Source: Lytechinus pictus | Taxonomy: Eukaryota | Length of the DNA stretch: 62,000 bases | Direction of reading: 5' to 3' | Assembly: GCF_037042905.1 (NCBI RefSeq) | Contig: NC_087245.1 | Coordinates: 1,612,001 to 1,674,000, forward strand | Part shown: in pieces, positions 311-57,200 of the stretch | Layout of the letters: every line of letters starts with the position of its first letter | How positions within the stretch are numbered: position 1 is the first letter of the stretch | Notes under the pieces: generated by a model | What the model was told of the DNA's origin: nothing | The model's database searches: none | What the model saw: the letters and a program-made list of their open reading frames with translations, nothing else | Program-made: the position numbers and the translations under genes

Positions 311-3300
311 TGTGCAAGTTGCCGTCAGGAAGCTAATTACTTCTGCTGCTGGAACACTAGCTATTGTAGTTATAATTGTCAGGAGCGTCATTGGCAAAAG
401 CATGAGAAGAAGTGTCAGCAGAAATCTGGGAATTTCCCATTTGCCCCTTCTGCAGCTGTGGTAAGTTCAATTCCTGAGAGTTTTTCTCATGAGCGTTCGA
501 CTTATTTGAATCAATTAAGATGCTATGAGATGTGTGATTTAACCCTGAATAGACTGGGCTATTTTGATGCCTACATGTAAGAAGAGCCCCCCTTATGATC
601 TTGGTCATCGATCGCGACGAAAATAAGCATGCGCGTTACCCATGGCATAATCTATAAAACTAAGATCAAATTCTGCGAAAAATGTTATTGCAAATTAATT
701 ATGCTAATTTATGCATAAAATCAATTAACTAAATAATGCCCCTAAAATGCTAATTTTTGGTTCACACTCTTTATAGGAATCTGATCAAATGTACTTTAAA
801 AAGATTTCAACATCACATTTATTTTCTTATGTATTTCATTGTTTTCTAAATTTCTTATGCATTTCTTTGTTTTTTTACTTTTTGTTTTTTATTGTTTTTT
901 CAATGGAAATTGTTGGGGACTTTGTTTTGACCATAAACAAGATGAAATCAATTGATTTTAATTAGTAAAAGAAAAAATAATGATACATTTTTTAATTTTG
1001 GATAAAAATACTGTTTGCATTGGATTTGTACACAAATTCACGTTTTTGAGCAATTTTTGGTCTGCATGCACTTACAAAATGGTGCGTAATTTTAGAACCG
1101 CGTACCCGGGGATCACAATTTGGTCTCAAAAGTGGCGCGAGACTTGAAAGCAAATAGTCAGCGATGCGGTCAAAAAAATTTGTGCAGCGAATTTATCACG
1201 AAAAATGTCTTATTAGGGTTAAAATGAAGCTTGTTTTTTCTTGATTTTTTTTCATTACCTGAATATATTGAAATATTTTATAATGAAAACTGAGTGAAAT
1301 CTGATGACGTTGGTTTATTAAATGCACACCTGGGGAGTATTTCATCAACATTTTTTGTCTGACAATTTGTCAGGTCTGAAAATTTCCCTTGATTTGGATT
1401 GGCACAGTTCCCATGGTCATTGTCAGATAAAACAGGACTTGTCGCATAAAACGTCTGACAAGTCTTTTTATGAAATGCTCACCAGAGCTCTGTTAATTCT
1501 AGCTCCTATGAACATGAAATAATAGCGGTCGTAAGCATATATCTTCATTCATTCATTTGATTTTATTCAGGATCCCTATGACCCCTATCGAAAGAAGAAA
1601 AAGAAGAAGAAGAGGGCAAGAGAGGAAGAACAGGCCTGGCTGAAAGAGTATGGTTTTGGTGGTGAAGAAAGCGACGATGACCCAACATGGGAACCTGACC
1701 CAGAGGTATAAATCATCTTTATCCCCCGGGGGGTGGGGCGTCATTGTGGAATGTGCATCATCCACATGTATGAATAAACATAAAAAAGGGGGCTTGGGTG
1801 GTTCACCAGTCAGGAAACACATGTGTTGCAGTAACGATATAAACATTCTTTTCAGAGAAAGGGCATCAAATTCAGTGATATCAAGAAAAGGAAGATCTGT
1901 AGAAAGAGTAAGAAATTGATAGACCCAGTCACAACAAAAAGATCCTATCCCTTTGTGAAATGACATGAAAATACACAGGGCAAGGTCACAGGTGAGAAAA
2001 GGTAGCCTATGCAGGGGACTGCAAAGGAAATCAAATGATGTCAAGCTTGCAATTATAGGAACAGAAGAAAATAAAATACATTTACCATTCTTTTAATCAA
2101 CAAACAATATGCTCTCTGCAGGATTATCCAACTATGGTTGCGCGGAAGAAAAAATATACACTTCCTACAAGCAATACTAACAGTAACCTTAATGCCTTGA
2201 GGAAGCCCAATCCTGGCCAGTACATTCCCAATCGCTCGTGGACACTGCCACCAGGAAGTGTCGCATCTCATCAAAATGTGAAGATGGCATCCATGACCTC
2301 TCCAATGGGAACCCAGCAAGTCAATCCTGCATCAAAGATAATCACACAGACACCCTCTAAGGTGGTAAGTTTTGTATTCCTACTAATATATCTCTGGTAC
2401 AGACCCATGTACCTCCTTTTTATATCTCCCGCCAAACAAAGTTTGATGATTGTCAGTGGTTTGCGCATTTGCAATAAATATTGGTATACCTGTTGTCCAC
2501 AAAAACTTATTTTTGTTGCATAAATAGCATAATTGTGGAAAATCCTGTTTTTTTTTTAAATGTTGAAGAATGGGATTATATAGAAAATGTTTCGGACAGG
2601 GTTTGTGCTGATTTTTAGCGTGATCGTGAAAATGGCAGCCAATATTTTGAGCTTTCTAAATTCAGTCATCAAAATTGCAGTCTTTTTAAAGCTCAGTAAA
2701 GCTCCTGAATTTCATTTTCTTGTCTAGGTATATACATGTACTTTTTTTCAAAATTCTCATTGAATATAAGAAAGTGATAAGGATGATATTTTTTTCTTAT
2801 TATTCCATGATTTCTTGATTTAATTCCTTATGTATTATTATTTATTTACTTCTTGTATTTTAGTATTTTTCAGTGAAATATGTTGGCGATGATATTTATA
2901 TCATAACAAGCATGAAATTAATCAATAATCATAGAATAAAGAATAATCACCTATTCATAAAATAGATTGAAAGATTGTTTGAACCTAAAATCATGTTATT
3001 GTCAAATTTGTTAGTCCAACACCCAATTACAAAATTTTAAGTAAATTTTGAACCATGTGCACTGCACAGACTTACAAGCAAATGAAGTCTCAAAAGATGA
3101 GCAAGATTGACAAGTCCATTGCAGCTTGTGAATATTAAAAGGTCAAGGATCACAACAGAAATGTATTGATTCCCTCATCAATTCACTTCATTTTATTCAA
3201 ACATTTAACAATTAATTTGATAAATATGCCCAGTGGCCTGGGAACGAGGGGGTGGTGGTTTGTAAAGAAAAATCTAACAAGCCCCCCCCCCCCTAAAAAA

Positions 3301-4675
3301 TAGGTTTCAGTTGTGAATAAGGGAGAATTTCATTAAATTTAAATAAAAGGTTCCCCTGTACCAATCTACCGAGCACCCCGTCTATGAAAACATCAGCAAA
3401 TGCTTACAACAACAAGCCAAGAGAAAAAAAAATCCTTTATGCATAATTTCCAGCAGAAACTTTGCTTTTTTTGCAGCTAGAAATGCCTTGAGTCTGCTAT
3501 CAGTATGTCTTTCAAGCAATCTTTTTCTATATCTATAGATGAGTGCAAATGACAAGCAACAGAAAGTGCCTGTATGCTATGCATACAGATTTAATTAAGC
3601 CTTTGCTTGGTGTCCGTCTTGTTTTTTATTGCTCTAACATGAAGCAATTGCTATTATTTATTTATGTGGCTCATTAACCCATGCATACAGCCATTATCAT
3701 GTCTAATGATGACTGTAATCCCTGTTTCAAACTTAATGCCCCCAGTGTCTAAAACATGTAGATTCAGAGAAACAAAAGTGGATAAACCAAGTGTCTCCTG
3801 TTAGATAATTCTGTCACAGTTGTGTATATATAATTAAACAATGGGTTAAATCATGATTTAACACCTTTGCTAAAATTTGCTGTATTGTTAAGTCAATGTT
3901 TTACTTTTCTGTACAGATGTACATGCCACCAGTGCAACAGAATGGGCCACAAGTCATCGGCCAGAATGCTTCTACGGGGCAAGTTGTAATCAACTCTCAT
4001 CAGAAACCTGTGAATTTTATTCCTGGTCCAAGGAATGATCTGTCTAAGCAACCTAATGTAGTTTATGTTGGGACTAGCAAACCAGGGATACAGATGGCAT
4101 ACCCTACTACCAACCTCACCATGCAGGCCAATCCTGGTATCAGCGGTGGAATACAAAATCATGGCACTCCTAACATGCCTTTCAAATTACAGATGGGATC
4201 AAACAAGTTGCCCATGTCTTCATTGGTCCAAGCACTTGGGCAGCCCGTGCAGCAGGGTAGCAAGTTCTTCATACAGGTCACACCCGGACAGCAAGGCGGC
4301 AATGGCAAGACGGTCAAAGTCTCGCAGATGCCACAACAACCTCTTCAAACTGGCAATATGCCCATCATTCTCAATAATGTGATTGGGGGGTTACCTCAGG
4401 GACAAATTGCCCCTGCTGCGATTGTGAGTGAGAATGTTTTACAGAATATTCAGCCTGTTGGTGGGAAAAAAAGTGTTGTAACGGTTCCAAGGTTGGCTCC
4501 TGGTTCAGCACCAAGTCCAAAGCAGATCGTCATCACTGTACCTAATGCCACAAATACTGCTGTAAGCTCCATCAGTGTACCGTCTGTTGCTCCTGTAGTT
4601 GTTGATAGTAAACCAGTTGGAGGAAATATTCCTCCTGGAATTAAAATGCAAGTGACTTCAACCAAGAATTCTTAA
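311..4675 (+). CDS. ZMYND8: ZMYND8/RACK7-like MYND zinc-finger protein, last four coding exons (5' partial): join(311..460,1571..1705,2122..2364,3917..4675)
   Basis: Exon 311-460 encodes CASCRQEANYFCCWNTSYCSYNCQERHWQKHEKKC, with the CCWNTSYC signature of the ZMYND8/ZMYND11 MYND finger. The HWxxHxxxC spacing and a long tail after the MYND favour ZMYND8. All exons have ag/gt boundaries and phase 0 (150, 135, 243 bp); the last ends at TAA 4673-4675. Exon 2 is DPYDPYRKKKKKKKRAREEEQAWLKEYGFGGEESDDDPTWEPDPE, and the last exon is Q/P/G low complexity. Confidence 0.8.
543..1218. mobile_element. piggyBac-like non-autonomous element (MITE) in ZMYND8-like intron
   Basis: TTAA at 539-542 and 1219-1222. 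Termini read CCCTGAATAGAC and (reverse complement) CCCTAATAAGAC. TTAA TSD with CCY..RGG ends is the piggyBac signature. Confidence 0.7.
1330..1485. mobile_element. Short MITE, family A copy 1
   Basis: TIR CTGGGGAGTATTTCAT ... ATGAAATGCTCACCAG. Homologous to 31491-31652 and 49388-49565. Confidence 0.75.
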
Positions 4676-19900: not shown

Positions 19901-22263
19901 ATGCATAATCAATAGGTATATTCAAGTTTTTTGAGCTGGGAAGATTGATTGATGCTACCTATCAAAGGTTATACTTTAAAATATGTGCGACAATCTGACC
20001 TCTCTGTGTTTTTAATCAAATAATTTTCACTTGATCTATTTCTGACATCTTAAAAACTTTGAAATGAAATCTGTATATTTCTAGACGAAAGTTGAAAAAT
20101 ATCACTTTATTTGAATTGTTTGCCCACCGGTGATAAGCCGCTACCGGTTTAGATTCTTATTTTCTTTCGTTACAATGGATCTTCATATTGTTGACCAAAC
20201 ACTACACTACTTCCTCCCTTTGGAACAATCAAATGTATTGTTCACTTCATAAGTGTTTTCATATATCCATAAGAAAAGCTTTCAATCTCTTTGGAATGTC
20301 GATGTTTTGCTTGATGATACGCCAGAAAAAAAAGACAGCTTTGCCCCTCTTTCCAATTTCCAAATGTCAATACTCGAAAATGCAAAACTCAGCCGTACCG
20401 ACAACTTCTTCAAACACTCAGACCTGCACATCAGGCATATAAGTCTTAAAGTTGTATTCTAGAGAAGTTTGCAGATGATGGTACTATTGTTACACTTTGT
20501 TTGAGCGCCACAAAATCTCGACACTTTCTTAAGACTGTGTGGCCTTTACATAGTCGATCAAGTTATTTCATGGGAACTCACGAATGCGTTTGTCTGCAGA
20601 CCCTCCGCGGTGCAAATCTTTTCTCTTTCGATACTCTTAGATGGGAGTAAACTGTGAAGAAGTGGGCTTAGGTATAAGTCTGCGATTCACCAAAACAACT
20701 CATTCTTTTAAAAGTAAAATAACAGAAGAGATAAAAGAATGAAAATCTCCAACCTGTCTTTTATTTAGAAAGCTTCTTCAGTTTCTTTTTGCAAAAAAAG
20801 TCAAACCTGCAAATACTTCGCCTTTGTTTGTTGTGAAAGGCTTGTACTTTCACTGTGCTACAAAAAACACTTTGTAAACATGGCTCTGCATTTGTTTAAA
20901 CAAGAAACTTTTCAAGTAGTCTTCTTTTTATATTGTCTGCGCAATCGACTTGATCAAACATATTTTTGGGTATTAGCAACATGACGCGAATAATTGTAAA
21001 AGGCACAACATCTATCGAGAAGATGGGGCGAGACAATTTTTTTTTTAATTTATCGTTCTTCGTTTTTTTCTTCTGTAGACCTATCTAAATTGAAGAAATA
21101 AAGCAGAAAATAGATGGATATTGGCATTTATTCAAGAGTAATGTGAACAAGGGTTCCATTATCAGTTTAAGTATTCATTCTAAATTCCAAGGATTTTTAA
21201 ATGAATTCAGATCGGCTGTGAAAAGTGGCCAACAGATTATTTGAATCAGATTTATACCTTGTGGATTTCATTACAAAGCTAACAATAGAATTTTAAAATG
21301 TATATTTTTTCACATTCAAAAGTTAGTACTAGAGATTAAAAATAATTCAAAAAGGCCTATTAGGCTGGTCAGAAGGCCTATTCCAAGTCGATGTGGTTTC
21401 ATTTTAAATCCCTGAACTTAATAGAGTGTTGAATTATTCAATATATTGTCCTTGATGCTATGACCCTTAATGCTTCGAAGAAAAGCTTTAAAAAATGTGT
21501 ATATATAATTTAAAATACCTAGGAAAAACTTTAAAGAAACTATCCTGCAAGTAATTGTATTTCTTTCTCGTTCTTTTGATTCTTATTCGTTGATTCATTT
21601 CATATCATTTTGATGCCAGTAAGAATTTTTATTAATGATAATATAATTATCATTCTCCGAGCATTGATTCCTCTAAAATTAACTGCAAGCTTTATTTTTA
21701 CAGGCACTGGCATATACTTGTGAATAACGTTTGAATAATACTTTGCGTCATAATATATTTTGCATCCATTTCAATTATATATGAAACATCGAATTTGGAT
21801 TTACAATGTAATCATTTTATATTCAAATGTTGGACTTGATTATACCTGGAATTACCCATGCTTTGCAGTAAATTTCTGTTGTAATCTATGAACAAAATGG
21901 TAAGACTTTGAAATTATATTCGTTTAAGACATGCAGCTTTATACCAGCGTATTATCAGGTAATTATGCATGATTATGAAACTAACACAATATTGATGCTT
22001 GACAATAAATACAAAATCCTTGATGAATTAGGAATATCTTTATACACAACCTGTCTTTATACAGATTCAAAACGATTCTTCAATCGGACTGGTATATCTG
22101 ACTTGCGGTGTTGACCTAGCCTGTCGCGGCGCCACGAGGATATAGGCGTGAACTACATCATCCACAACGCCGAGGAGGAGCAGCAATCCAACCGGTTGAC
22201 CTGTTACACCCAACCGAGAAGTCATTGATTGACTCCCCGCAAATCTCCCGTCCATTCTTGACC

Positions 22264-25200
22264 ATGCCCCGTGCATTTCTTGTCAAACACAAGCGAGCTC
22301 GAGTGGATAGCATAGCGGATGAGCTGTTAGCTCGTCATGAAATGGTCCATGGTGGTAAGAAGTTTACCTACTATCATAATGATAAAATTATTATTCGTTT
22401 TTATTATGTCTTGTATAATTATAACGCATGTGGTGTGTTCCATTTCTTTCCCTTTTAACGATGTATAAATCTTCTACGTTTCTTTTCTCTTCTCTTAGCT
22501 ATCTTCGTATATACTTCCTACCTCTTTTTTCTCATCTCTTTCCTCTTTGTGTGTGTATAATCATCTTCTTTCAATTGCATAATTTTAGTTCATGCTCATG
22601 CCGCTTTTGATTTATATAAATAGTTTCCCTTTATCAACAACATCATAATTACCATGACAGTCACCATTATTTAAACTATTCTCCCTTTCAACAATTATTT
22701 AAATATGTTAATAATCAATACTGAAAAAATTAGTAAATAAGATTATGAAACAATGAAGAAGCGAAATAAGTAAGGAAGACCAGTAAACTCATACATGTAC
22801 CTAAATGTTTCATATGTGGTTTATCATTTTTATTTTCATTTATATATTTATTTATTACATTGCTTCATTCTTTAATAATCTTATTTACTCATTATTTTTC
22901 GTTGTTGATCATAATCATATTTAAAATAATTGTAAAAGGGAGAATATTTTGCATATTATGTAAAAAAAAACTTTTTCTGAGGGCGGACACTTTTAAGCGA
23001 TTTTACATGTTCCTTTTATGCGTTGCGATTGTAATATTTTCCCCACTAACATGGCTTAAAGAATTAAGTATCAGTATCAATATAATGCCTTCCTATTTTT
23101 TTGTTTGCCTTAGTATCGGTAATGTTCTCTTATATTATCTTAATTACGGTGTTGTTCATCTACACATATCTATTAAACATTTTTACATAATCAAAGATGC
23201 TTGGGACCATTATCAGTCTGGTGCGTCTATTAGAAAAAAAAGTTCATTTCTACTAACTGACTAAGCGCAAAAATAAATTCTCACATCAGAATTCTTGTAC
23301 TTTTCTTTGACTCGGTTGTAAACAAATAAAAATATTATGAACTGCCATGACGTTTAATACTGTAAATTTAATTATGAAAGTGATGAAAATATGGGATATT
23401 TTCCCCATCCTTAGCACCAAAACAATCATAGCATACTTGCAAACGTCCATTGTGACAGTTTAAAATAAGACATTTACATCGAAAAAAATAATATAAAAAC
23501 GAAATATTTTTACCTTGTGAACGACTGAACCCAACTGGATATATTCGTATTGTTATTATTATTATTGTTATCATTATAATAAATATTATTATTATTATTA
23601 TCATACTATAATTTTGTATTCTCATTATATTCCTAACATTACATTCGATAATCTTTTTGAATTTAAGAATAGCCTGCTCTATATTGTCGTTTGTTTAAAT
23701 ATTTATTTTGTTCTTACAGATGAAGAGGGGATGCACATGAGGGGTCCTGATCAAGGATTCTCTTCGTCACACTTCGGCCAAAACATATATCCGGAAGGTC
23801 TGTCAAAGCGTGAGCTTAACGCCATAGAGATGGATATGGAAGCACGAGGATTGAAAAATATTCACCCTGCTTACACACTAGCTCCTGGTTTATATCCTCC
23901 AACACCACCACTCCTTCGCATGTCCACTGGTTCAGCCTTTGAGAAAGTTCACCCTGGAGTACCCATGACGGAGAATCTTGGAATGGGATATGGTCCTCTA
24001 CCTGGTAGTATAGACCCACAACGTTTGGTTCTTAACCCTTGGTTGGCTAGTTACCACGAGATCACGGGTCATAACATTCTTCGTGATCGTCTCTTGAGCC
24101 ATCCTGGTTACCTCATTGCAGATCCTAAATGCGGACTTTATCAAGTGCCACCTCGCGGTTATGCGTCAAAGCCTCTCGATGAACCTCTGAATCTTAAGAT
24201 TCGTGAGCAGTCACATGAAGAACAAGTAGATGAGCATGAAGAATTCTGTAGAATTTCCAAGAAATCTCATCCAGAAGATATGTTATCCTTAAAGAAACAC
24301 TCTCTGGGAGGGCCAGTCAGACTTCCTGGAGCAGGATCTGCAGATGATGAATACCCGCGATATCATCAGATGTCTTCAACAACTGCCATTCATCCATCAT
24401 CCTACCCGTTTATTGGTATTCCATATGGTCATCTCCTGGCCCATAAGTATTCTGGTGGCTTCGGCCTAAAGCCACTCGATCGCAATCAATATCCGAGCCG
24501 TAGAGGACGACCAGGGGTGGAAATGTCCCCGCCAACAGCATCCCATGCGCCACCACAGCCTGACATTGAAAATCCACCAATATGCAATGTGAAGCCAACA
24601 TTTAACGAACAGGAAGAAAGCAGCGATTCTGCTTCACCTTTAACGAATGCATATGAGAGTCCAACTATCCTAAATCAACCACGTTTCCCTGTTTCTCAAA
24701 CAAGCATTGAAGATGACGATAGTGGTGATCAGTCACCTTCTTCACCAACCGGTGGGAAGCGACTCACCAGGCAACCCATTTTGGGAGTAGAGTATATCCA
24801 AAACGGCATCGATAACGAACTCCACCATGACGCAGACAGCATCCAGGACTCAGAACAACAATTTCTCCTGCAAGACTCCGAAGAACAGTATCTTCTGCAG
24901 GATGGACTAAATCCCATCTCAGAGGGCGATAAAAAGACTGACAGCGAGTCCAACATGGATGACAGAGCCATCCTTCCCCTGATTCCAAAATACACAGGAG
25001 AGACTAAAGGTCGAAGGGCAAACAGTGCAAAGACACCTCAACCCCGGAAGTACATATGTGACGTTTGTGGCAAGGGGTTCAGCAGAAGCAACACATTAGT
25101 CACTCACAAGGTGAGACAAATAATGTTTACTAACTTTACTCTTACAGAAACAAATAATAAATGTTTCTCTCTCTCTCTCTTTCTATTTCTCTCTCATTCA

Positions 25201-28200
25201 ACCATTATTGATAATCGATATTCCGTAAAATCAAATTAAATCCTAATAGGCCTACGTACGGATTTCGAAGTGTTTCATACGATATTAAAAATGTTATCTT
25301 CGTATGTATGATTTGGCTATGGTTTATTGTGGTTTCATTGCATTTATATCCTTGCAGTGAACTCTTTTTTTTCTCAAAACTTTGTGTAACCTTCTTTCAA
25401 TATACACCTTATATTATGAATATCACGCATTTACTCGAAGTAACAAGATTGAGATAAGCTTTATTACATCAAGCTGAGAAGGACATTGCACTCCACTTCA
25501 AGATTTCGATATCTTTGTAAGATTTAGCTCATTCTGTGATCTCTCTTTATTTGATTTCTTCATGTTTTGATCTTCACAGCGGCAGCTGTGCACAACAATA
25601 TAATCCGCATTCAATAGTATGATCCATGAACAAAATTATCTTAAGTCTCTACACTCAGTCCGACACTTATTACCACTTTCCCAGTATCATCTCATTTCAC
25701 TTGTCTTACACAAAGAGATGAAGACAAAAAACCTTCTTAAAATCATCTCCTTTTCGCTGGAGAGAGCTGTTTGCTCAATGCCAGGTGGGGTTGTGTTTGA
25801 ATCCATCTCTCTTTTTTGTTCAGTCTTGCCTTTACGAAGTGACAAAAGCTCGACAGCTTGGGATTATTACGTAAGAATGAAACGCCGTGTTTTCTGTTCA
25901 GGGAATCAATAGGGGTTGTGCTTATCCTCCAGACCAGTGTGTCCACGCGCCAAATATCGATTTGAATGGATGATGATGTAGAGAATAAAAGAGGAGCACG
26001 CGAACCAATAAAATGATGCTCAGAATCCCTCTGGATATAATGTACAAAGGATTGTCTGTCGAAGATTTCACGAATGTTCACACTGCCACTCTTTTCTTCG
26101 CAGCAATTACACCTTTTCAATATCAAGGAAGTATCGCATAAAAAAAAAAAAAAAGTTATTCGTTTTTATTACACCTAGTAAAGAAGACAAAAGAAACATG
26201 CAGGTTTTGATTTATATGACGTTATGGAACATAATATAGGTAAACATAACATATTTAAGGATTCATTCATTTGCGTGTATATACATGTACATGACTGTGC
26301 ATGACATAGTTAAAATGTAATAATAATCAAATTGGCGATTTTAAGAACCAGTTATTTCTTATCATCGAATATTGAAGTTATTTGTAAAAGTGAATTTATC
26401 ACTTCCTCTATAAAATAACAAATTAATGCAAGCTTATTTGCATTTTAAGTGAAATATATGTACATTGAATAAATGATTCAGCTACCTAAGGTTTTCTTTT
26501 CAATATCGATGCAATATTAGACCAATTATACCAGACATACATGGAAGAACAACCGCCGTAATTACCCTTGCAATTCTCGTCAGTCTCCTCCGTCTTGATA
26601 AGCGCCGAGGTTCCGGTATAAAATGAACCGGTGACTACGGGTTGTATCGATTTCTTTCTTTATGAGCGAAAGGGCAGTTAGGTCCATGGTTAAAAGAAAG
26701 CGCTGTCGTGTTATCATCCTCACTTTGTTATACCGTCGATCATTGTCTTTTTTTTACTTCCGTATTAACCAAAATTAATGGAATGTAAAAGAATGCACGA
26801 TGTTTTTATGATATTCCAGCTAGGCTGTAAGAAGGGTTTAATTAGAAGGCCCAGGGGGGCCACTTACATTGACGAGTGGATACCATGCGCGACCAAAAAA
26901 ACACGTAAAAAGGATGTCTTTTTCACGATAGGGCACGTTACGTACGTAACGTGATAAGGGTGTCAAAAACACAAAAATAATGAAAAAAGGGTATCTATTT
27001 CGCTAGGAAAATTGCGTGTTTAGGGTCGAATTCGCGGGGATGATAAAACAAAATTAAAATGTTTTATAAAGGATGTCCTTTTTGCCCCAACACTTCGTGT
27101 TTAGAGTCCGATTTGCGCGAGGTGTAGAAGGTGGGGTCGTACTAAACCAAATAAGGTAAAGCCGACGACCGAAGGACCCGTAACAATAAAACATTTTTGT
27201 TTAGGGGTTCATTCAGGGAACATTTGCCAAGAGTAACGTTTTGTTACCAATATTTGTTAAGGGTATGGTTTCACACGCCAATACTTGTTAAGGGGCGCAT
27301 TTTCAGAATATATGGAAATTACGTGTTTAGGGTGCTTTTCGAGACCCCATGGTCGCGCATGGTATCCACTCGTGAATGGAAGTGGCCCCCACCCCCCCCC
27401 CCGGGTTAGAAGGATACATAATTATTTTTGGCGAAGTAACGTTACGTATCAATCATGTATGTAAGCAATGGAGTACAGCCCTGGACAGGCACTGACAGGG
27501 GCAAAAATGGCCCTAAAGGAAGGGGATGTAACTTCAATTGTGCTTCACATTCATCATTTATTGGGTCATTCACTTTTAATATCAACTACACTGAATGAGA
27601 TTTCTTAAAGAAGAAGTATTCTCATAGCATCTTATTAGCACAATGATTATGTTCACAACATTAGCTTATATATTTTCAACTCTTCATATTGATTCTCTGT
27701 TCGTTCAGCTGTTTAACTTTCTATCATTACACTGATGACCAAGATGCTTATCATTCTCCATCTGATAAAGCACAAAGGGGTTTCAGATACTCAATTTCTT
27801 TTGATAAATCTCCACTCGTTCCCTTATCTTGTTTGATATAATTCACATTTGAAACCTCCAATTATCGATCGTTCTTACTTTGAATAATTTAAATGGATTT
27901 CCCCCCCCCCCCCCCCATTCTTACAGCGCATCCATACAGGAGATAAACCCTTCGCTTGTGAACTATGCGGAAGAGCGTTCCGACAACCCGGGAACCTTAC
28001 CCGACATCGCCTGACCCATACTACGGTCAAACCTTACGTGTGCACGCAGTGTGGAAAGGTAAAAAAAAAATGCAAATTCAAATCATTTCACTTATATGCC
28101 TCATTAATTTTCATATTACATTTACAATTATGAAACAGTTAGTATAACCTTCCTACTTTTAACATGCTTTATGAAACGGGGCCAAAGAGTGGAAATTAAA

Positions 28201-31200
28201 AGGTGAATTTAATCATTTTCCTCTTAGAGAGCATTCGAAATTCAATTATGTTTAATCCAATAAACAAATGAATAAGTGTGATAGCTGATGAGAAAATAGA
28301 CAATTCAAAATTAATATTCATTTAAAAAAAAAGACCATTACTTCCGGAAATCTTGTTTAAAAGCTTTTGCTGGTCTTTACCCAGTTGTTACGCAACCTGT
28401 TAGTAAACTTTATACGAAAGTTCCTTTATTTCATTGGTTTGAAACAGTCAATATTCAGTTATTGGAAATATTCATTTTAAGAATATTGTATGCGAATCCA
28501 TTGTAATGTATTCATGATGCTGTGGAAATAAGTCCTTAATGAAAATGCAATTAATGGTCCAAGAAAATTATCAACGGAAAATAAAGTAAAATATATGTGC
28601 TGTAATTGCTACTGTGATTCTATTCAGCCTAAGCATTTGTGTTTGTTTTCTGTTTTTATTATAAAATAACAGGCGTTCAACCGAGCATCGAATCTTCACA
28701 CTCACATGAGAACCCATACCAACTACAAACCATTCGTGTGTCAGTACTGTGGCAAGGGATTTCATCAGAAGATTGATATGAAGATTCATTCCTATACACA
28801 CACTGGTAAGAATATTATTTATAACGATCCACCTAAGACACAAACACACACACACACATCTACCCCACAAATAACAGCGCACACACACACCCCACCCCCC
28901 ACAAATAACAACACACACACACACCCACAAATAACAACATACACACCAGCGGCGTACCCAGGATTTTCCAAAAGGGGGGCAATTTTTTTGGAGGATATTT
29001 GGAGAAAATTTGACAAGCAAATAAAAAAAAAAAAAAAAAAAGGTCTTCGACCACCAATAAAGGACATTTCGTATTAGAAAAAAAATTGACAAGCAAAAAA
29101 AAAAAAAAGGTTTTCAAGTTTTCATTTTGATTATCAAAAGGGGGGGGGGCGTCCCCTGGATCAGTTGTGCCTCGTCAGGGGGGTAGGGGTACGTCCCCTG
29201 CATGAGTTGTGACTCGTCAGGGGGCAGTCTGTCCCCCTTAGGTACGCTAGTGACACACCCCCATAAATAACACACACACACACACACACCTACCCCCACA
29301 AATAACAACACACAAGCCCACACCCACAAATAACACACACAACCACACATACCCCCACAAATAACAACACACAAGCCCACACCCACAAATAACAACGCAC
29401 ACAACCACCCCCACAAATAACAACACACAAGCAAGAAACGGACGACATCCTCAACCTTTTCTAAACTCATCCCTAAAAATCTCAAAGCTCATGTCAGTTT
29501 TTTATTTTAAGTACTCGAATAGGATACTTCAAAGTGAACTTTTGGAAACGCAAACTGTTTTAATTTTCCATATTCGTCCATAGATACCTTCTTCTATTGT
29601 ATCGTGGTGTTTTGTGTATCTGTTGTTGTTTTATTAGAAGTACTTTACTTTTTTAATAAGAATTTGGCATACGCTGCATGGATTTGTTTAGTTTATTTCG
29701 AATTGAAACCCAAGCCCTGGCTGATGCCTCTCCCGTTTATGTATATAAAGATATTTTGATGACGCAGAAGTTTGCAACAGAAAACAAGGAGAGTCAAAAC
29801 CAGTTATAGACCTATGGATTTTCAGTGATGCTGTATTTCCATGTTATCAAATAGCAGTAATGAACTTCTGTATAAGTTAATATTTCTTGCAGTATTGATC
29901 AGATCTAAGATGTAATTAAGAAATTCTAAAATCATGATTATTAATGTGTATTTAAAGATGTTCTTGCAGTCTGTATCTTTCTTTGTGGTGAATTTATTAT
30001 ATACGGTTATCAAATAGAATCGCTGCATGGATTTGAAAGAGAAATAAACGAAGCCATTCCCACAGCGCTTAATAGGATTAAAAATTCAAATGACTATTTT
30101 GCATTCACTTATATATTCTTACTGAAGGTAGGATGATTACAGTCACGATACTGTTTAATTTCCTCAAAAGTTAACGTCAAAAATCAGTTACGAAAAGAAC
30201 CAAAAGTCGGAATAAAATTTCGGAAAATGCAAATTAATATCAAAGAAAAATCTGTCAAGTTTATTTTGAAAAATCTTTACCTTATTCTTTTTTTTTTTGG
30301 TCATCTCTATTTTCCCTTGGCAGGTGAAAAACCGCACAAGTGCAAGAAATGTGGGCGTGGCTTCAAGCAGTTGACCCACTTGACCTACCATATGCGCACG
30401 CATTCGGAGGTCAAGATGTATACATGCGCCTACTGTGGGAAGGGTTTCAACCAGAAAGGAAATCTACAGGCACACATCTACCGACATACTGGTAAATTAA
30501 CCTCATGAAAATCAAATATATTCAGAAATTGCTAAATATTTGCATATATGGGTTATCCAAACATTGGGAATATCGGGTTCCAAAAACCTTAAGTTTTGCG
30601 TTAATTTAAGCTTTCAATCCATGCAGGCGATAGTCCATTTCAAGCACTTTTTTCAAGATTTATAGTTTACGGCCTATATCCAACAAAATATATAGTCTCG
30701 TTGTTTCCACAGGCATTATCTATTTTACCTTGTGCATCACATATTTTGTTATCAATAAGAACGATTTATGCTTTATATACACAGTGTTTGTTATCAGTTA
30801 TGCCATTGAATATATGTTATGTATGTAAGTTGTATTATTTTCTGTTGTAATGAATAAATAGATGAATACGAATAAAATACAACTTGTCAACATTAGCTCA
30901 CAATAATAATATTTCCTCGGATCTAAATAGAACTGAAGGGGAAAAAATCTTACAAAAACTTTAAAAATAGTAGTTAATCATGATCATGGACATAGACGGT
31001 ATCAGTGGTATGAACAATAAACAATTCGATTTTATATCGAATTTCATACATATACAAGTAATACAACATTAATGTTGACCGCTTCATTTTTCTCCTTACT
31101 TACAGGTGAGCGTCCTTACCGCTGTGAAGTTTGCAACAAAGGTTTCACATTGGCGAGTACTCTTAATACTCACCGCCGCACACACGCCGATAAAAAGCCG

Positions 31201-31302
31201 TTTGCTTGTCAGTACTGCGGTAAAGATTTTTACCAACGTAATGCCTTGAAAAGTCATCTTTTAGCATCTCACCCATACACTGATGGAGAAAGCTTATTAT
31301 AG
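22264..31302 (+). CDS. SNAG-domain C2H2 zinc-finger repressor, Gfi/senseless- and Fezf-related, 8 fingers, 703 aa: join(22264..22354,23720..25110,27927..28058,28673..28805,30324..30491,31106..31302)
   Basis: ACCATG start with the SNAG motif MPRAFLVK. The six exons have GT-AG boundaries and phases 1,0,0,1,1 and total 2112 nt. Fingers: [104 protein letters not shown]. Stop TAG at 31300-31302. Confidence 0.9.
26850..27405. mobile_element. Non-autonomous DNA transposon (CCC..GGG termini, 8-bp TSD) in coding intron 2 of the SNAG-ZF gene
   Basis: TIR CCC(A/G)GGGGGG..GCCACTT..ACGAGTGGATACCATGCGCGACCA. Perfect TSD TTAGAAGG at 26842-26849 and 27406-27413. Superfamily not assigned. Confidence 0.8.
28840..29430. 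repeat. CA-rich minisatellite (CCCACAAATAACAACACAC units) interrupted by a MITE
   Basis: Repeated ACCCACAAATAACAACACAC motifs on both sides of 28947-29252. Confidence 0.8.
28947..29252. mobile_element. hAT-like MITE
   Basis: Termini CAGCGGCGTACC ... GGTACGCTAGTG. The TSD is obscured by the CA-rich host repeat. Confidence 0.55.
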
Positions 31303-31490
31303 GCATCCTTCTCTTATACGATTTGTATTGTTTTATATAGAATTGAGCAAAGACCCGACAACTCGTGTCTTATTATTTATATTGAAATCATCTTTCTTTT
31401 CAATTTTTAAGCCAGAATTTGGAATACGTTTTATTGCAAAGTATATACCCGGAAAATGGTTTCAAAGAATTTTATTTAGATATTATTGTT

Positions 31491-31652
31491 CAGGGATACG
31501 TTTCATCAACATTTTTGTCTAACATGTTGTCAGATCTGACAACTTGCATTGATTCTGATTGGCTGACAAGCACTGTTACCATAGTAACTGTCGAAAAAAC
31601 AGGACTTGTCGGATAAAACTTAAGACAAGTTATTTCATGACACGCTCACCAG
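31491..31652. mobile_element. Short MITE, family A copy 2 (probable 3' UTR of the SNAG-ZF gene)
   Basis: CAGGGATACGTTTCAT ... ATGACACGCTCACCAG. Homologous to 1330-1485. An AATAAA lies downstream at 32171. Confidence 0.75.
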
Positions 31653-32981
31653 GTGTTTGACGAACTGACATACGGTCATACTACTCAAAACTTGATGATT
31701 TACGATATTTTTTTTCAAAATATGATTGCAAATATTTCAATAATCATTTACAGCTCTGTACGACAAATACAGTATGTCGATTTTAGTGCTTAATATTCTC
31801 ATAACCAACTTGGACAGGTATTTGAATGATTTAATTCCTCTCTAAAAGTATGTTTCCATCCAATCTACCTGTAAGATATCATATATTATTTGCCTTTACC
31901 TAACATCATGTATTATTCATTATTTTGCTGATGTTAAATACTTAATACTTTTAATCGTTTTTTATAATATTGTTATTATTTATGTTAAAGCCATGTAGAT
32001 ATATTCTTATCTGTGAATTCCAAGGTTATGTGTGAATCATAATGTGCAATATATTAGTAGCATAGATAATCAATACTCATCTTTTCTCATTTTTACAATA
32101 AGCCTTGAATGAACAACTACTAAAATGTAAATACCTATCAAACTTGTTCCATGTATTCAAATTATGTGAAAATAAATTCATGTAAATTTCAGAGAGAACA
32201 TGCATGTTTAAAATTATGTTGATGGTAAAGGTGCACCATGCGGTGCCTTTAAGAAGGAATAAGAATATAAGAAGGAAACATTGTATAAAACAAGATTATC
32301 CAAAAGTTAAAAATATATGATTTTCGCATGTCAAAAAGTGAAAAGGTAATGCTCAATTTTATGTAATGGTATCGTTTTTTTTTTTTTTCATCCTATAATT
32401 ATTGTCAATTATAATTTATCATCAAATTATACTCTAACGTGGTTAACATTTTTGCCATATTATTTGAACAAGTTTTATTGAAATATATGGTAAGTTAGGG
32501 ATTATGAATCTCCCTTGATATTTTAGCCAATAAATTGTCCTATCTAACTCACCCAATGGAACAAGTGTATATTTATCATTAGGGCATATCATTGTTCCCA
32601 TTTGCTATATTGTATTGGACATGTGTATGTATTTATGTATACGTGCGCTTGTGGGGGCAATAGGGATGTTAGGGTGACTGGAAGTGTGTGTGTTTTTAAG
32701 GTCAAATCCACTTCTAAAATATCAATAGAGAAAAATAAAACAAGCGTAATGCTGAAAATTTCATCAAAATCGGATGTAATATAAGAAAGTTAAGACATTT
32801 TAAAGTTTCGCTTATTTTTCACAAAACAGTTATATGCAGAATACAGTAATATAAAAATGAGAGGGTCGATGATGTCCCTCTCATTGTTTAATTAAACAAC
32901 ATTTCAATTTTTAAATATTTGACAATAAGGAAACATACGAAGCCCCAAACCGGACATTTTTGACATCAAAAAAAAAAAAAA

Positions 32982-33911: not shown

Positions 33912-36900
33912 CAGGGACCTGGGAACTCGCGGGGGTGCTGGGGGTGCTGAAGCACCCCCAAATTTTTCCTGGGGGTGCTGCGTGTATTATTTTCCATAGG
34001 CAGCACCCCCACGAAATCAGGTTCCCTTTGTATTTTTTATATATGTTATAATGTACATAATTATCACATCCGACAATCGCAAATCATATACAACGTCTTT
34101 CACATATTCCAATAACATCCCTCCTATAACATGTAACGCGACTCAATCAAGCTCCGGCACGCCGATACAGACGTAGTCGCGCGCGATACGTGATCTTTTT
34201 TTTTTCTTTCAATCTTTATTGATCAAAAAATAAATCACAGTACAAATCAAACAAATCAACAAGCTATTTACATGATTAAACAGAGCAGCACTTACGTACA
34301 TGTAGGTATGTACTTGTCAAGACAGATTCATAAAACAAATTAGATATCAAATCTCCACTTTTTAAAATGTACAGGTAATTTACCATTTTTCTTCGCCAAA
34401 ACATATTCAATATCCTTAATACCTTTGATACGAGCTTTTAATTCCACAATATTGGGGTTTTTGTTATTAAATTTACAAAAGTGAACATAGTATTTGAAAG
34501 CAAGGAAAATGAATGTTAGAAAATTATCACCTTGAATACCAAAAACCTTTACAAAGGGGGAAAGGACAATATTCGAATGTTGTTTTTGGTTTATTATAGA
34601 TAAAAGATCATCCCATACAATGTTAACCACCGGACAATCACAAAATATATGTACAATTGTTTCAGGGTCTCTTTTACAGAATGAACAGTTTGGGGAATCT
34701 TTTCTCTTGATTTTAAATAAAAATGCATTAAGGGCAATTGTCTTATGAAACACCTTGAAATAAAATGATCTGAGGCGGCTATCAATAGTACTCTTAAAAT
34801 TCAGCATATGTATTTTCTCCCAGTCTACTTTGTCGTTAGAAGGGCACGACTCTTCCCAAAAGGAAATACAATTATCTGGGAGACATTGATCGAAAAATAT
34901 CGAGTATGCATAACTGCTAACTTTCCTTTTCTCTAATAATTTATCTACAACTTCGGAATTGATATCTAACCATGGACCAGGAATATTTTGTAATAGAAAA
35001 TTAAATTTTCTTCTATCTTTTGCTGAAATTTCAAAGTCGAGAACTAACTCTTCAAATAACTTGTAACCTGGATGGGGTGGATTAAAGAGATCACTTATAA
35101 AAACTATGCCCTTATTAAACCAATTTCCATAAAAGAAAAATTGTTTAGATTTGGATCTGACATTTCTATTAAACCAAATACAATGTGAATAACCCAAATA
35201 CAAATAATCATAACCAAACTCTTTTCTGGAAGCTTTATCTCTAAACAAGTACCAGGTCCGGATTGAGTCTGCAAGTAGGGAACAATTTAAATTATTCAAA
35301 ATTTGTTCAGGTGCATGGGCCTTCCACAAAATGTCCCTCATTGCATTAAATTTGTCTAAAAAGGAAACTTCAATTAATTTCCATCCACTATTGTAGTTAT
35401 CATTTAACAAAAATTTTACCCAAATCATTTTCTGAGCCAATGAAAATGTATAGGGATCAACCATCTTGAGCCCACAGGCAGAAAAGTCATTACAAAAATA
35501 TTTCCTCTTTACTCTGTCCCTGCCTCCATTCCAAATAAATCTGTAAAATAAAGTATTTAGATCTTTAAAAAATTTGCTTGGAATTTTAATACACAAAACA
35601 GATAGTAAATACAGCAACTGAGGCATTAATAAAGTTTTAATAACACAGATTTTTCCAACAAAAGACAAATTTCTTGAGCGCCAACAATTCAATTAATATA
35701 TTCTCTATCTGCCTCAGTTTAGGAACATAGTTAAGACTATACAGTGAATTAAAATTCAACGAGAATTGAATACCCAATGTTTTGAAAGAATTATCTCTCC
35801 ATGTTAGACCTCTTTCAGCAAATGGGAAATCTTGACAACCTTTTTTCCTTCCTATCCAGATAGCTTCTGACTTAGATAAGTTAAGCCTACACCCTGAACT
35901 ACTAGCAAATTTATCAAGCACTTGAATTGTTATATTAAAAGATTCCAAGGAACCATCCAAAAAACAAGTTGAATCATCCGCCATCAATGAAATTTTCACT
36001 TCTTCATTTTGGATTGGAATACCTTTGATAATGTCATTTTGTCTCACAGCTAAAGCCATTGTTTCAATTACAAGTAAAAAAAGATAGGGGGAAATTGGGC
36101 ACCCTTGGAATATGCCTCTTTCCATATTAATTACCTTAGTTAAAAATCCATTATTCATAACATAACTTTTCCTCTCGCAATAAATGTTTTTTACCCACTT
36201 AATAAATTTTGGATAACCATTATAGTTTACACACTACCATGACTACTCGATAGCAGAGAGGGACAAGGGTGTGGTTGGACTTGAAACTTAGAGGGTTTTA
36301 TGTCGAATCAAGTGTGGGCGAGCCCGACCGCCCGTGTTTTGTATAAAGAATTACAATTCAGACAATAAAAATCAAATTTCAGTCTTTTTCGCCCTGCCCC
36401 ATGGCCCTGGGAAGCGGGGGTGTTGGGGGTGAAGCACCCCAAAATGTGGGGGTGCTGCATGTGTTATTTTCCATAGGCAACACCTCCTGGAAATCTAGTG
36501 GTAAGTTGATGAATGACAGAAATGTAATGAAAATGAACGACGTTTTGTAGACCCCACCCCCTTAAGAATTTTCCGACACAGTACTTAAAATAGTGTTTAA
36601 ATTCACCCTTTTTCAAATCGGAATATCAAATATTTTCTGCTCGTGCTTCGCGCTCGCATTATTGATTTTTATAATAAAAACAAAGTATTTACAACGCCCA
36701 GATACTAAAGGGCTAACTCTAAACACGCGCACGCATGTTTATTCAGATACGCAGCTTGTTTTGGGGCTACTCCGGGCTGAAAATATTTATATCAAATACA
36801 ATTTTATGAAAATCTGATAACAAATAGTTATGTTATTTAATTCTAAAGTTTAGCAATAGTTTATGAAAATGGTGATATGCATGTCGTCATGAATATTAAA

Positions 36901-54230: not shown

Positions 54231-57200
54231 TCAAATATCCCAGATGAACCAGCCTACTTGGCTCGGTGATAGGACTGCCGCAAAGCAACTTGTCGACACA
54301 GCAATGCCCCAAGGTTTAAAACCTACAGCCGTATTATCATTTGGAAGATAGGTCTCCGCAAGGAGTTCACCATGGTCTCCATAAACCTCCAGGAAAGCTC
54401 TGCGAGTACCCTGGATGTTATGATGAGATATAACCCATAGATTGCCTTCTTGGTCACAGGACACTCTACCAGTCGTTGAGAGAGCTATTACTCGACATGA
54501 ATTATCCGATGAAGCAATTACGACCCCATCGTCCTGTATAATGACAATCTTCCCATTCTCTGTTGAATTGATCCTCAGTTCCCCGTTTGATTTAATGCCA
54601 ACTACGGAGACTGCATCAATACGTGACCCATCACCTGAAGAAAGTCTAACGATTTTCGCGAGTTCTGAGTACAGCATCAAGACATTGTCCTCGGGATCTG
54701 TAGTGATAGCATCCACCACTCCATCATCCTCATGTATTGAGAACTTAATGTTTTGCTGTATGCCTCCACTCTCATAGATCTTAACCTTATTTCTTTTCGT
54801 CAGAGTGACGAAACGACCATCAGTCAGTGATGCCATATCTTTGGCTGAGATGTTAGCTGACCTTATTCTTTTGCTACTGCCATCTGACCAAAGGACTTCC
54901 GTGTGACCATTTTGATAATGAACCAATATGCTGTCATTCGTATACGGTGTCATTATTTTTATTCTACCGGATACCTGGGCACGGAGAGTGAGAAGAAGTC
55001 TGTGCTTGCGAACTTGGAGAACGCATTTCTCTTCACCTGCAAAATTGTGTGAGAAGAACAAAAAATATCAGAAAATGAAGTCAAATGCAGAAAGTACAAT
55101 TTCATGGATTTAACATTCATATAATGTGAAAAATGTATTTATATTTATTTCTTATTATTTATTTTGTCTTATTTATTTTATACTGCAGGGTAGGCCTGTT
55201 CAGTTCTTAAAACTGCTTTACAAAGGCGCCCTGCAGTTTAGAATACATGTCAAGATAACTATGAACAACAACAACAAACAACATCAAAAATACAAAATAC
55301 AAAATATCTAACATCAGAAACAATTAACACCAAAATATAGAGTGGGAAGTGACAATTTGAACATACATAGCATTGTAAATCAATGGAATATCATTTCGCT
55401 CTTTATCAATTCGTATGAAAGGCTTTGCATAATTTTTTAAAAACTAACAAGGAGGTACAAACTTGTAAATTTGAAGGAAGTGCATTAAATAATTTGGGTC
55501 CGACATATGCGAAATATTTTCTTTTATGTTCAATTCTAGCTTTGGGAAGCTGAAGGGGGCATCGTAAAGAAAACCGTGTCCTGTATTTCACGGGCCGTTT
55601 ACATACTAAAGGTTTTAAATAATTTGGAACTAAATCATTCATTATTTTATATACAAGAACACAATACTGATATTTTATACGCTGATCTACTGATTGCCAC
55701 TTCAGTGACTGCAACAAAGAAATTTGTGATGTATTATAATTTTTTTTCAAAAGCATTCTGGCATATTTATTTTGAAGTTTTTGTATCTTATCTAAATGTA
55801 TTTTTGCACTGCTTCCCCAAGATGTAATACAGTAATCAATGTTAAGGTAAAATCATAGAAAAGTACAGCTTCTTCATGATATCAAAGGACAGTAAGTGCT
55901 TAATCCGCCTTACACAACCTATTGCCGAGATATTTTACAAATGATATTAGTAATATGTTCGCACCAAGTCAAGCCCGGATCGAGCATGACACCTAAGTAT
56001 TTAATCTTTTTTACATTTTCTAATTGTATGTTCCTGAATTTCACTGACAAATGAGCACCCCTCAACTTTTTCTTTTGACCAAATACCATGGCTTTTGTTT
56101 TTTGCGGGTGTAAATGCATATTCTTTAAGTCTAGCCATTTACTTATTGAATCAAAATCATCTTGCAAATACTTTTGTACCTCCTTAATTGATTCACCGTG
56201 ATTAAAAATGGCGGTATCATCAGCATAAAGAGACATTTTAGAATGTACATGCAATTTCAAATTACACATGTCATTAATAAAAATACAAAATATCAATGGA
56301 CCCAGTATAGATCCTTGTGGACTCCTGATTTTATCTTCAAAAATTCACTGCGACAACTGTTAATCATTACAAATTGCCTTCTGTCTGTTAAATACGATTC
56401 CATCCAGTTGTATTCATTGCCAGTAATACCATAGTACTTAAGTTTTGCAAGTATAAAATTGTGAGGAATAACATCAAAAGCTTTGCGTAAGTCCAAGAAA
56501 ATACCACCAGTAACATGTTTTCGGTCCATTTTATCATACAAAAAGTCTGTAATCTCAGTTAGACAAGTGGCAGTAGAATAAGACGGTCTGAAGCCAGACT
56601 GACAATTTGCAAGTAGATCATTCACATTTAAGTACTTATACAATTGATCATGTATTGCTCTCTCTAGTATTTTGGACAGGACTGGAAGCACAGAAATTGG
56701 TCTATAATTGTCAATATCAAATGATCCTCCCTTATGTACAGGAGTAATTCTTGCTGTTTTGAAATCTTCTGGAATAACACTAGTTTGTAAAGTTGCATTA
56801 AATAAATGGGTTAAAGGGCCAGCTATACTCTCTGCTGCCAGCTTAAGAAACTTAGGGTGAATGCCATCTACTCCGACCGCTTTCGAACAATCAATATGTA
56901 ATAGTTCTTTCAAAACATACTCCTTTTTGATTGCATAAAATTTAAATTCACAATCTGGAATAAACAGAGTTTGTAAATTGTTTAATAAATCTTTCGAGAA
57001 ATTACCCGAAGCGGCTTGCAACCTTGAGCCGACTTCATTAAAGGCTTTGTTTAGAACGTGAGCTATTTCATTGTTAGGTATTTGATCATTATCTATTGTT
57101 AATTTAACATCATGACTCGTGGTTTTATTTTTCTTAGGTATAAGCTTCGATAAAATGTTCCAGTTCTTTTTTATGTCATTTTCGCAGTCCTTAAATTTGT

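Follow-up and report, generated by a model that had tools for sequence, protein, structure and literature searches.

An eight-finger SNAG zinc-finger gene of the sea urchin Lytechinus pictus and its relation to Gfi and Fezf

A stretch of 62,000 nucleotides from Lytechinus pictus (assembly GCF_037042905.1, contig NC_087245.1, positions 1,612,001 to 1,674,000; below, the window) carries on its plus strand, at window positions 22264-31302, a gene for a protein with a SNAG motif and eight C2H2 zinc fingers. A preliminary description had called this gene intermediate between Gfi and Fezf and had proposed a distinct, possibly ancient and poorly described family. Is the locus a diverged orthologue of one of the two known families, or does it stand beside them? 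The gene is neither Gfi nor Fezf and belongs to a third, very conserved family. In our preferred explanation, with a probability of about 0.78, it is the urchin member of an ancient transcription factor family of the single-copy type, whose SNAG motif and eight fingers were already present in the cnidarian-bilaterian ancestor. Its kinship with Gfi and Fezf would lie in fingers 3-5, and the family would include the C. elegans protein MNM-2, in which only fingers 1-3 are retained.

Separation from Gfi and Fezf

For comparison, at least 119 metagenome loci were retrieved by a scan with a degenerate finger-4 pattern. Among the loci listed, at least 76 are of the Gfi type, at least 33 of the Fezf type and at least eight belong to the family of the urchin gene; one is of another kind and one is too short. 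The label Fezf stands for helices in common with fly Q9VQ56 and with human entries, all of which we take to be Fezf. The label Gfi stands for helices in common with proteins named GFI1B orthologues in PMC9172639. One locus (L015) has the finger-exon layout of the urchin gene. Another (L034, match 1887-1922, minus strand) combines a Fezf-like finger 4 with helices unlike those of Gfi, Fezf or the family, and possibly represents a fourth related family.

Over fingers 2-6, compared in register, the gene is identical to Gfi in 62-65 of 135 positions (seven loci; 46-48%) and to Fezf in 69-75 (six loci; 51-56%), while Gfi and Fezf share 63. The values for Fezf lie below the criterion of PMC2942887, according to which true Fezf orthologues are typically more than 75% identical over six fingers. 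Finger pair 3-4 matches the corresponding pair of Fezf in 31-33 of 51 positions and that of Gfi in 28-29, and is thus nearer to both than they are to each other (26/51); pair 4-5 matches pair 4-5 of Gfi in 31-32 of 51. Three of the four Gfi comparisons and both Fezf comparisons score above all 1578 background pairs, and the fourth Gfi comparison gives p 0.0025; the background consists mostly of vertebrate KRAB-type fingers and is an imperfect null. These counts bear out the earlier observation that fingers 3-4 track Fezf and that finger 4 with its linker tracks Gfi. The helices that Gfi and Fezf have in fingers 1, 2, 5 and 6 do not occur in the gene, and the reported absence of the Gfi finger-5 helix extends to all eight fingers. 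No Fezf-box/eh1-like pattern was found in the gene with the eh1-like pattern used for the search.

A tree of 40 rows (21 of the 109 family proteins described below, eight Gfi, four Fezf and seven outgroup sequences) contains three clades: the family (support 99/97), Gfi (100/99) and Fezf (100/96). Together they are separated from long-branched outgroups with 98/97; the bootstrap of this tree was not fully settled. In a set of 19 rows the family clade received 97/95, and approximately unbiased (AU) tests rejected the groupings of the gene with Fezf (p 0.008) and with Gfi (p 0.013). The gene, for which a phylogeny against both families had been set as a test, therefore nests in neither. Groupings of the whole family with Fezf (p 0.32) or with Gfi (p 0.21) were both not rejected, and the best small tree joins Gfi and Fezf (80/77). 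No one branching order of the three families is thus established by the trees, and the term intermediate holds for similarity only.

All three kinds of gene occur as separate genes in the same genomes. Nematostella possesses Gfi 112378 and Fezf 230810 besides the family genes 89609, 121619 and 179413, and Capitella has family gene 177976 besides 45287 and 181040. For C. elegans, a table in PMC2889900 gives pag-3 and Y38H8A.5 as Gfi and Fez, which exist besides mnm-2. S. purpuratus also has a canonical Fezf. Gfi1, Gfi1b, Senseless and PAG-3 resemble the gene in the SNAG motif, fingers 3-4, the linker between fingers 4 and 5 and the intron position after finger 4; they differ in their six fingers and in the helices and identity values given above, and form a separate clade. 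Fezf1/2 and Earmuff are closest overall, with related fingers 2-5, but likewise have six fingers and a clade of their own, with a Fezf box in bilaterian Fezf. The SNAG motif does not tie the gene to Gfi, because non-bilaterian Fezf also has it (PMC2942887).

The family was collected by searches with exon 6 and exon 4 of the gene (for exon 4, the best 120 of 224 matches), which yielded 124 distinct proteins. The helices of the gene are present in 109, of which 84 have all eight fingers; the other 15 poly-finger proteins are unrelated. The named members represent all five echinoderm classes, two hemichordates, Lingula, Owenia, Haliotis, Gigantopelta and many anthozoans. Of the 219 residues of the finger array, 213 are identical in Diadema, 204 in Saccoglossus, 193 in Lingula, 185 in Acropora and 182 in Nematostella, which corresponds to 83-84% for the two anthozoans. 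Helix positions -1, 3 and 6 of fingers 2, 4, 5 and 6 are invariant in all 84 eight-finger members. A SNAG-like N-terminal motif was found in 25 of the 109 proteins. Since these include members from Nematostella, Acropora, Stylophora, Actinia and Xenia, the combination of SNAG and eight fingers probably predates the cnidarian-bilaterian split. With orthologues from anthozoans to echinoderms, the trees, and the presence of Gfi and of Fezf as genes of their own in Nematostella and Capitella, the proposal of a distinct and ancient family stands.

The finger datasets of PMC9172639 also contain exact finger motifs of the family. They come from Nematostella (models 89609, 121619 and 179413, with partial matches in 2515 and 34044), Acropora, Capitella and C. 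elegans. No human, Drosophila or Hydra row of these datasets was matched by any of the eight helix terms listed in full, in an exact-match search that cannot prove absence; the result suggests losses of the family. One match, in Nemopilema, comes from a 13-finger protein that is not related. When the whole array was used as query, poly-finger KRAB-type proteins dominated the results; two ESM Atlas searches yielded nothing but generic C2H2 clusters, and PDB searches gave generic finger matches (Gfi-1 2kmk at E 2e-25 among 107 sequences).

Within the family, some lineages deviate in copy number and layout. Crinoids have a second, seven-finger paralogue (P0033, P0034). In stony corals and anemones (P0015, P0186, P0192, P0226) there are about three paralogue types, one of them near 1000 amino acids, and the finger regions are intronless in the seven loci seen. 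The octocoral member P0229 has fingers 3-8 only.

The family has probably been noticed before. PMC2942887, citing Shimeld 2008, describes 'Fezf-like' genes (SpuFezli and NveFezf3/12/30) that have a SNAG motif, lack the Fezf box and are basal to Fezf. This description, from 2008/2010, concerns a sea urchin gene and three Nematostella genes; the present counts are one gene in the urchin and at least three paralogues in Nematostella. The present gene fits these traits: SNAG is present, the Fezf-box pattern is absent and Nematostella has several copies. By description, and not by sequence, it is probably SpuFezli. Other multi-finger C2H2 proteins that are discussed beside Snail or Gfi were rejected as relatives. 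None of the five helices shown for insect CG15269 matches (PMC2688512; PMC13607089), nor does any of the five fingers shown, of six, for cnidarian ZNF845/CnZNF1. The helices of the five-finger Snail/Scratch proteins were not matched either, by eye against the rows shown.

Could the gene nevertheless be the urchin's own Gfi or Fezf, diverged and extended by two fingers? Fingers 3-5 do resemble both families, and the six-finger isoform described below has the Gfi layout of SNAG plus six fingers. Furthermore, the intron after finger 4 has the place and phase known from Gfi: among the matches listed, which are not mutually independent, 59 of 76 Gfi loci have a GT break there, against 0 of 33 Fezf loci. 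The linker after finger 4 is a common intron site. A diverged orthologue is nonetheless highly improbable, given the AU rejection of both groupings, the 83% identity to a protein of Nematostella outside both families, the missing helices and Fezf-box pattern, and the canonical Fezf of S. purpuratus. A different case is a family that as a whole is an old Fezf paralogue, a 'Fezf-like' sister group instead of one equidistant from Gfi and Fezf, which is compatible with the rest of our explanation. Its identity to Fezf exceeds that to Gfi, pairs 1-2 and 7-8 resemble Fezf pair 3-4, and SNAG-bearing Fezf-like genes stand at the base of the Fezf tree in PMC2942887. However, the best small tree joins Gfi and Fezf instead, the family+Gfi grouping is not rejected either, and the family agrees with Gfi in finger 4, the linker after it and the position of the intron; the finger region of Fezf is mostly without introns (PMC2942887). 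We consider such a sister relationship a serious candidate, at somewhat less than even odds.

Gene structure, isoforms and conserved motifs

The locus is a single gene with six coding exons, each bounded by GT-AG, that form one frame of 703 amino acids (aa) with an exact start (ATG 22264) and stop (31302); all parts are listed in Table 1. The product is letter-for-letter identical to L. pictus XP_054749941.2, automatically named 'zinc finger protein 768-like'. Its eight C2H2 fingers stand in tandem at the C-terminal end (aa 477-694) with a spacing of 28 residues, and Pfam finds zf-C2H2 in every finger exon. For exon 1 there was no Pfam family, and the best match of a search was TetR at E 0.17 or worse, which was taken as chance.

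Table 1. Exons and sequence motifs of the gene, in window positions
Feature	Positions	Strand	Remarks
5' untranslated part of first coding exon	22065..22263	+	AG acceptor 22063-22064
Coding exon 1	22264..22354	+	GT donor; splice joint in X1 and X15 contigs
SNAG motif, aa 1-9	22264..22290	+	extreme N-terminus, including Pro2
Coding exon 2	23720..25110	+	extended low-complexity region; greater part of finger 1 (from 25057)
S-A-F-x-x-V motif, aa 102-107	23932..23949	+	conserved
PLNLK, aa 186-190	24184..24198	+	putative; resembles CtBP-binding PxDLS motif
Further motif, aa 381-392	24769-24804	+	nearly invariant across echinoderms and hemichordates
Coding exon 3	27927..28058	+	remainder of finger 1, finger 2, first part of finger 3
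Coding exon 4	28673..28805	+	finger 3 helix and finger 4; common to Fezf/Gfi fingers 3-4
Coding exon 5	30324..30491	+	cassette, 168 nt, phase 1-1, exactly fingers 5 and 6
Coding exon 6	31106..31302	+	fingers 7-8, conserved short C-terminal tail, stop

Four RNA runs were mapped on the locus, with contigs from runs X1 and X15 and raw reads from X19 and X20. All five introns are spliced in the X1 contigs; the X15 contigs contain the joints of the first three introns and the skip of exon 5. The SNAG motif and eight fingers of the preliminary description are confirmed. In both sets of contigs, about 400-450 bases from elsewhere precede position 22065, which places an upstream non-coding exon outside 21900-31800. 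The exon with ATG 22264 also contains an in-frame TAG at 22117, and 22065-22263 is free of ATG codons. MPRAFLVK, starting with Met 22264, is therefore the true N-terminus, and this is the position that a SNAG motif requires. At the other end, we infer that the X15 contig stops near 32550, just beyond an AATAAA at 32529.

Exon 5 is a cassette exon, which gives rise to isoforms with eight and six fingers in three urchin species. X1 contains both inclusion joints (depth 20.9) as well as the skip joint 28805-31106 (18.6), whereas for exon 5 X15 contains solely the skip joint. Skipping leaves the frame open and the linker intact, and joins fingers 1-4 to fingers 7-8 in a protein of 647 aa. Fingers 5-6 are missing in the same way from the X2 isoforms of L. 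pictus, L. variegatus and S. purpuratus. Abalone (Haliotis) records are likewise without these fingers, by isoform or by loss. In the literature, of which most subscription papers lay outside the search, no description of this splicing was found. The eight- and six-finger forms offer a simple natural experiment on the specificity of a finger array.

Outside the fingers, residues M1-P2-R3-A4-F5-L6 and K8 of the SNAG motif and S102, A103, F104 and V107 of the S-A-F-x-x-V motif are each invariant in 10 of 10 aligned echinoderm and hemichordate proteins. A pattern of the SAFxxV type was found in 36 of the 109 family proteins, cnidarian (out to corals) and lophotrochozoan ones included. The PLNLK site resembles the CtBP consensus PXD/LSX (PMC2688512). 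At its position, other urchins and a brittle star have PLDLK or PLNLK. In sea stars and crinoids, PIDLS or PLDLS occurs near aa 90; a PxDL-type motif is found in 12 of 109 family proteins.

The worm protein MNM-2 and a proposed mode of action

A C. elegans protein with fingers 1-3 of the family was found in the finger datasets of PMC9172639 and identified as C10A4.8 (mnm-2) by the clone table of a protein binding microarray (PBM) study (PMC4434323). The PBM insert is identical to aa 475-555 of the urchin protein in 71 of 81 positions, compared by eye. All residues at helix positions -1, 2, 3 and 6 of fingers 1-3 are shared, and so are the unusual linkers after fingers 2 and 3. In contrast to the urchin protein, MNM-2 is listed with three fingers, and the cloned insert stops just after finger 3. 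For MNM-2 an experimental motif exists (M0381_1.02; PMC4434323). The mother cell of the M2/M3 pharyngeal neurons expresses the protein, and M3 retains it; mnm-2 is required for M3 differentiation and for the guidance signal of M3 to the M2 axon (PMC4314705; PMC9453034). Through this match, a neuronal mutant phenotype and a measured DNA motif are on record for one member of the family. No report linking mnm-2 to the urchin or anthozoan genes was found in the literature searched, which covered few subscription papers and no orthology databases.

Fingers 1-3/4 are the part that is retained in every lineage. Because all -1/2/3/6 residues match, these fingers would very probably read a DNA site like that of MNM-2. 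The recognition code would give about 5'-nCA nAG GAA nWG-3' for fingers 4 to 1, a guess of low reliability; finger-code predictions of motifs are poor, with a median R2 of 0.21. SNAG mimics the histone H3 tail in LSD1, and the exchange P2A abolishes binding and repression by GFI1 (PMC5896174). As the default reading, the SNAG peptide is likely to plug the substrate cleft of LSD1 and bring CoREST/HDAC to such sites, possibly with help from CtBP, which would result in repression. Skipping of exon 5 would exchange the fingers adjacent to the core (5-6 for 7-8); whether site length or partners change as a consequence we regard as evenly balanced. The chances also seem even that the gene has a role when particular neurons or neurosecretory cells differentiate.

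Several points weigh against the reading of an ancient SNAG repressor family that includes MNM-2. The outgroups of the trees are long-branched poly-finger proteins, chosen without Snail, Ovo, Insm and Prdm. MNM-2 was compared over fingers 1-3, with its N-terminus outside the comparison, and stands outside the trees. Because the proteins were collected by shared words, the conservation counts are inflated. A SNAG-like start is present in no more than 25 of the 109 family proteins. Many of the others are unnamed open reading frame (ORF) calls that may miss the first exon, but the motif is absent from named Lingula and Oculina records too. Residue 4 of the SNAG motif is Ala, where SNAG of the Snail/Gfi type mostly has Ser, and this residue is reported to matter for cofactor binding (PMC4507178); Ala also occurs here in several Snail/Scratch proteins. 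In the raw reads of X19 and X20, of which 6% were examined, no coverage of the exons was found. Finally, repressor activity and DNA binding of the urchin protein are deduced from its sequence.

It is conceivable that the protein binds DNA as proposed and that SNAG is secondary, the main effect being exerted through CtBP or the SAFxxV motif or taking the form of context-dependent activation. The occurrence of PxDL- and SAFxxV-type motifs across the family is consistent with this, as is a missing or altered SNAG in Lingula, gastropod and some coral records; moreover, SNAG loss with replacement by other motifs is documented in Snail and Fezf (PMC2688512; PMC2942887). Yet echinoderms and hemichordates have an almost invariant SNAG, anthozoans possess it too, and it is encoded on a small exon of its own, which makes a secondary role quite unlikely. 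A related view assigns DNA reading to fingers 1-4 alone and protein or RNA contacts to fingers 5-8, so that the splice choice would change partners, not sites. It agrees with the reduced arrays of MNM-2 (fingers 1-3), of a Capitella model and a Lingula isoform (fingers 1-4) and of abalone (without fingers 5-6), whereas every one of the 84 eight-finger members has the same residues at positions -1, 2, 3 and 6 of fingers 5 and 6, and the spacing of these fingers is the canonical 28 residues. We judge this division of labour somewhat unlikely.

The finger array itself contains hints of its origin. Pairs 1-2 (29-31/51) and 7-8 (25-26/51) also resemble pair 3-4 of Fezf, and likewise that of Gfi; together with an exon 5 of exactly two fingers, this hints at growth by two-finger duplication. 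The self-similarity of the pairs is significant in one direction only. A tree of the 51-column pairs has no resolution, and a grouping by two-finger modules is not rejected (p 0.26). A wider scenario is offered tentatively: a pan-eumetazoan family of neural SNAG repressors beside Gfi and Fezf, built from a two-finger module and lost in human and fly, with MNM-2 as a truncated relic and an urchin cassette that switches arrays. If these losses are real, they would explain why orthology surveys between human, fly and worm missed the family.

The link to MNM-2 and the conserved finger-swapping exon are new here. SNAG C2H2 repressors were known as a kind, as was one worm member that had been studied, and the family probably already had a name, though one in little use. 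'Poorly described' therefore applies to this name and to the anonymous genes, and does not apply to MNM-2 with its phenotype and PBM motif, nor to the 'Fezf-like' group noted earlier. Repression through SNAG and LSD1 would in itself be an ordinary mechanism. What matters more is that MNM-2, apparently a worm-only neuronal regulator, becomes tied to a set of anonymous genes labelled 'ZNF768-like'. These are found in urchins, acorn worms, brachiopods, annelids, molluscs and anemones, and their array has stayed nearly the same since cnidarians and bilaterians diverged. A conserved neuron type can now be sought in single-cell atlases, targets can be sought with the existing PBM motif at hand, and the origin of Gfi, Fezf and the third family can be addressed.

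Other elements in the window

Intron 2 of the gene contains, at 26850-27405, a high-copy element with very high contig depth that resembles a miniature inverted-repeat transposable element. It has inverted arms of 41 nt (26855-26895 and 27350-27390) and is flanked by direct repeats of 8 bp (26842-26849 and 27406-27413); the 8-bp duplication presumably indicates the hAT type. The upstream neighbour (233-580 and 3857-4675, plus strand) encodes a MYND finger of the ZMYND11/ZMYND8 type (Pfam PF24324, E 4e-10) and also has a Q/P-rich exon without a Pfam match. On the minus strand, an ORF of 278 aa at 54231-55067 looks by eye like an NHL/beta-propeller repeat, with no Pfam family at E 0.1. The broken ORFs at 34340-36233 and 55406-57810, both also on the minus strand, resemble by eye the remnants of retrotransposons with a reverse transcriptase of the long interspersed nuclear element (LINE) type.

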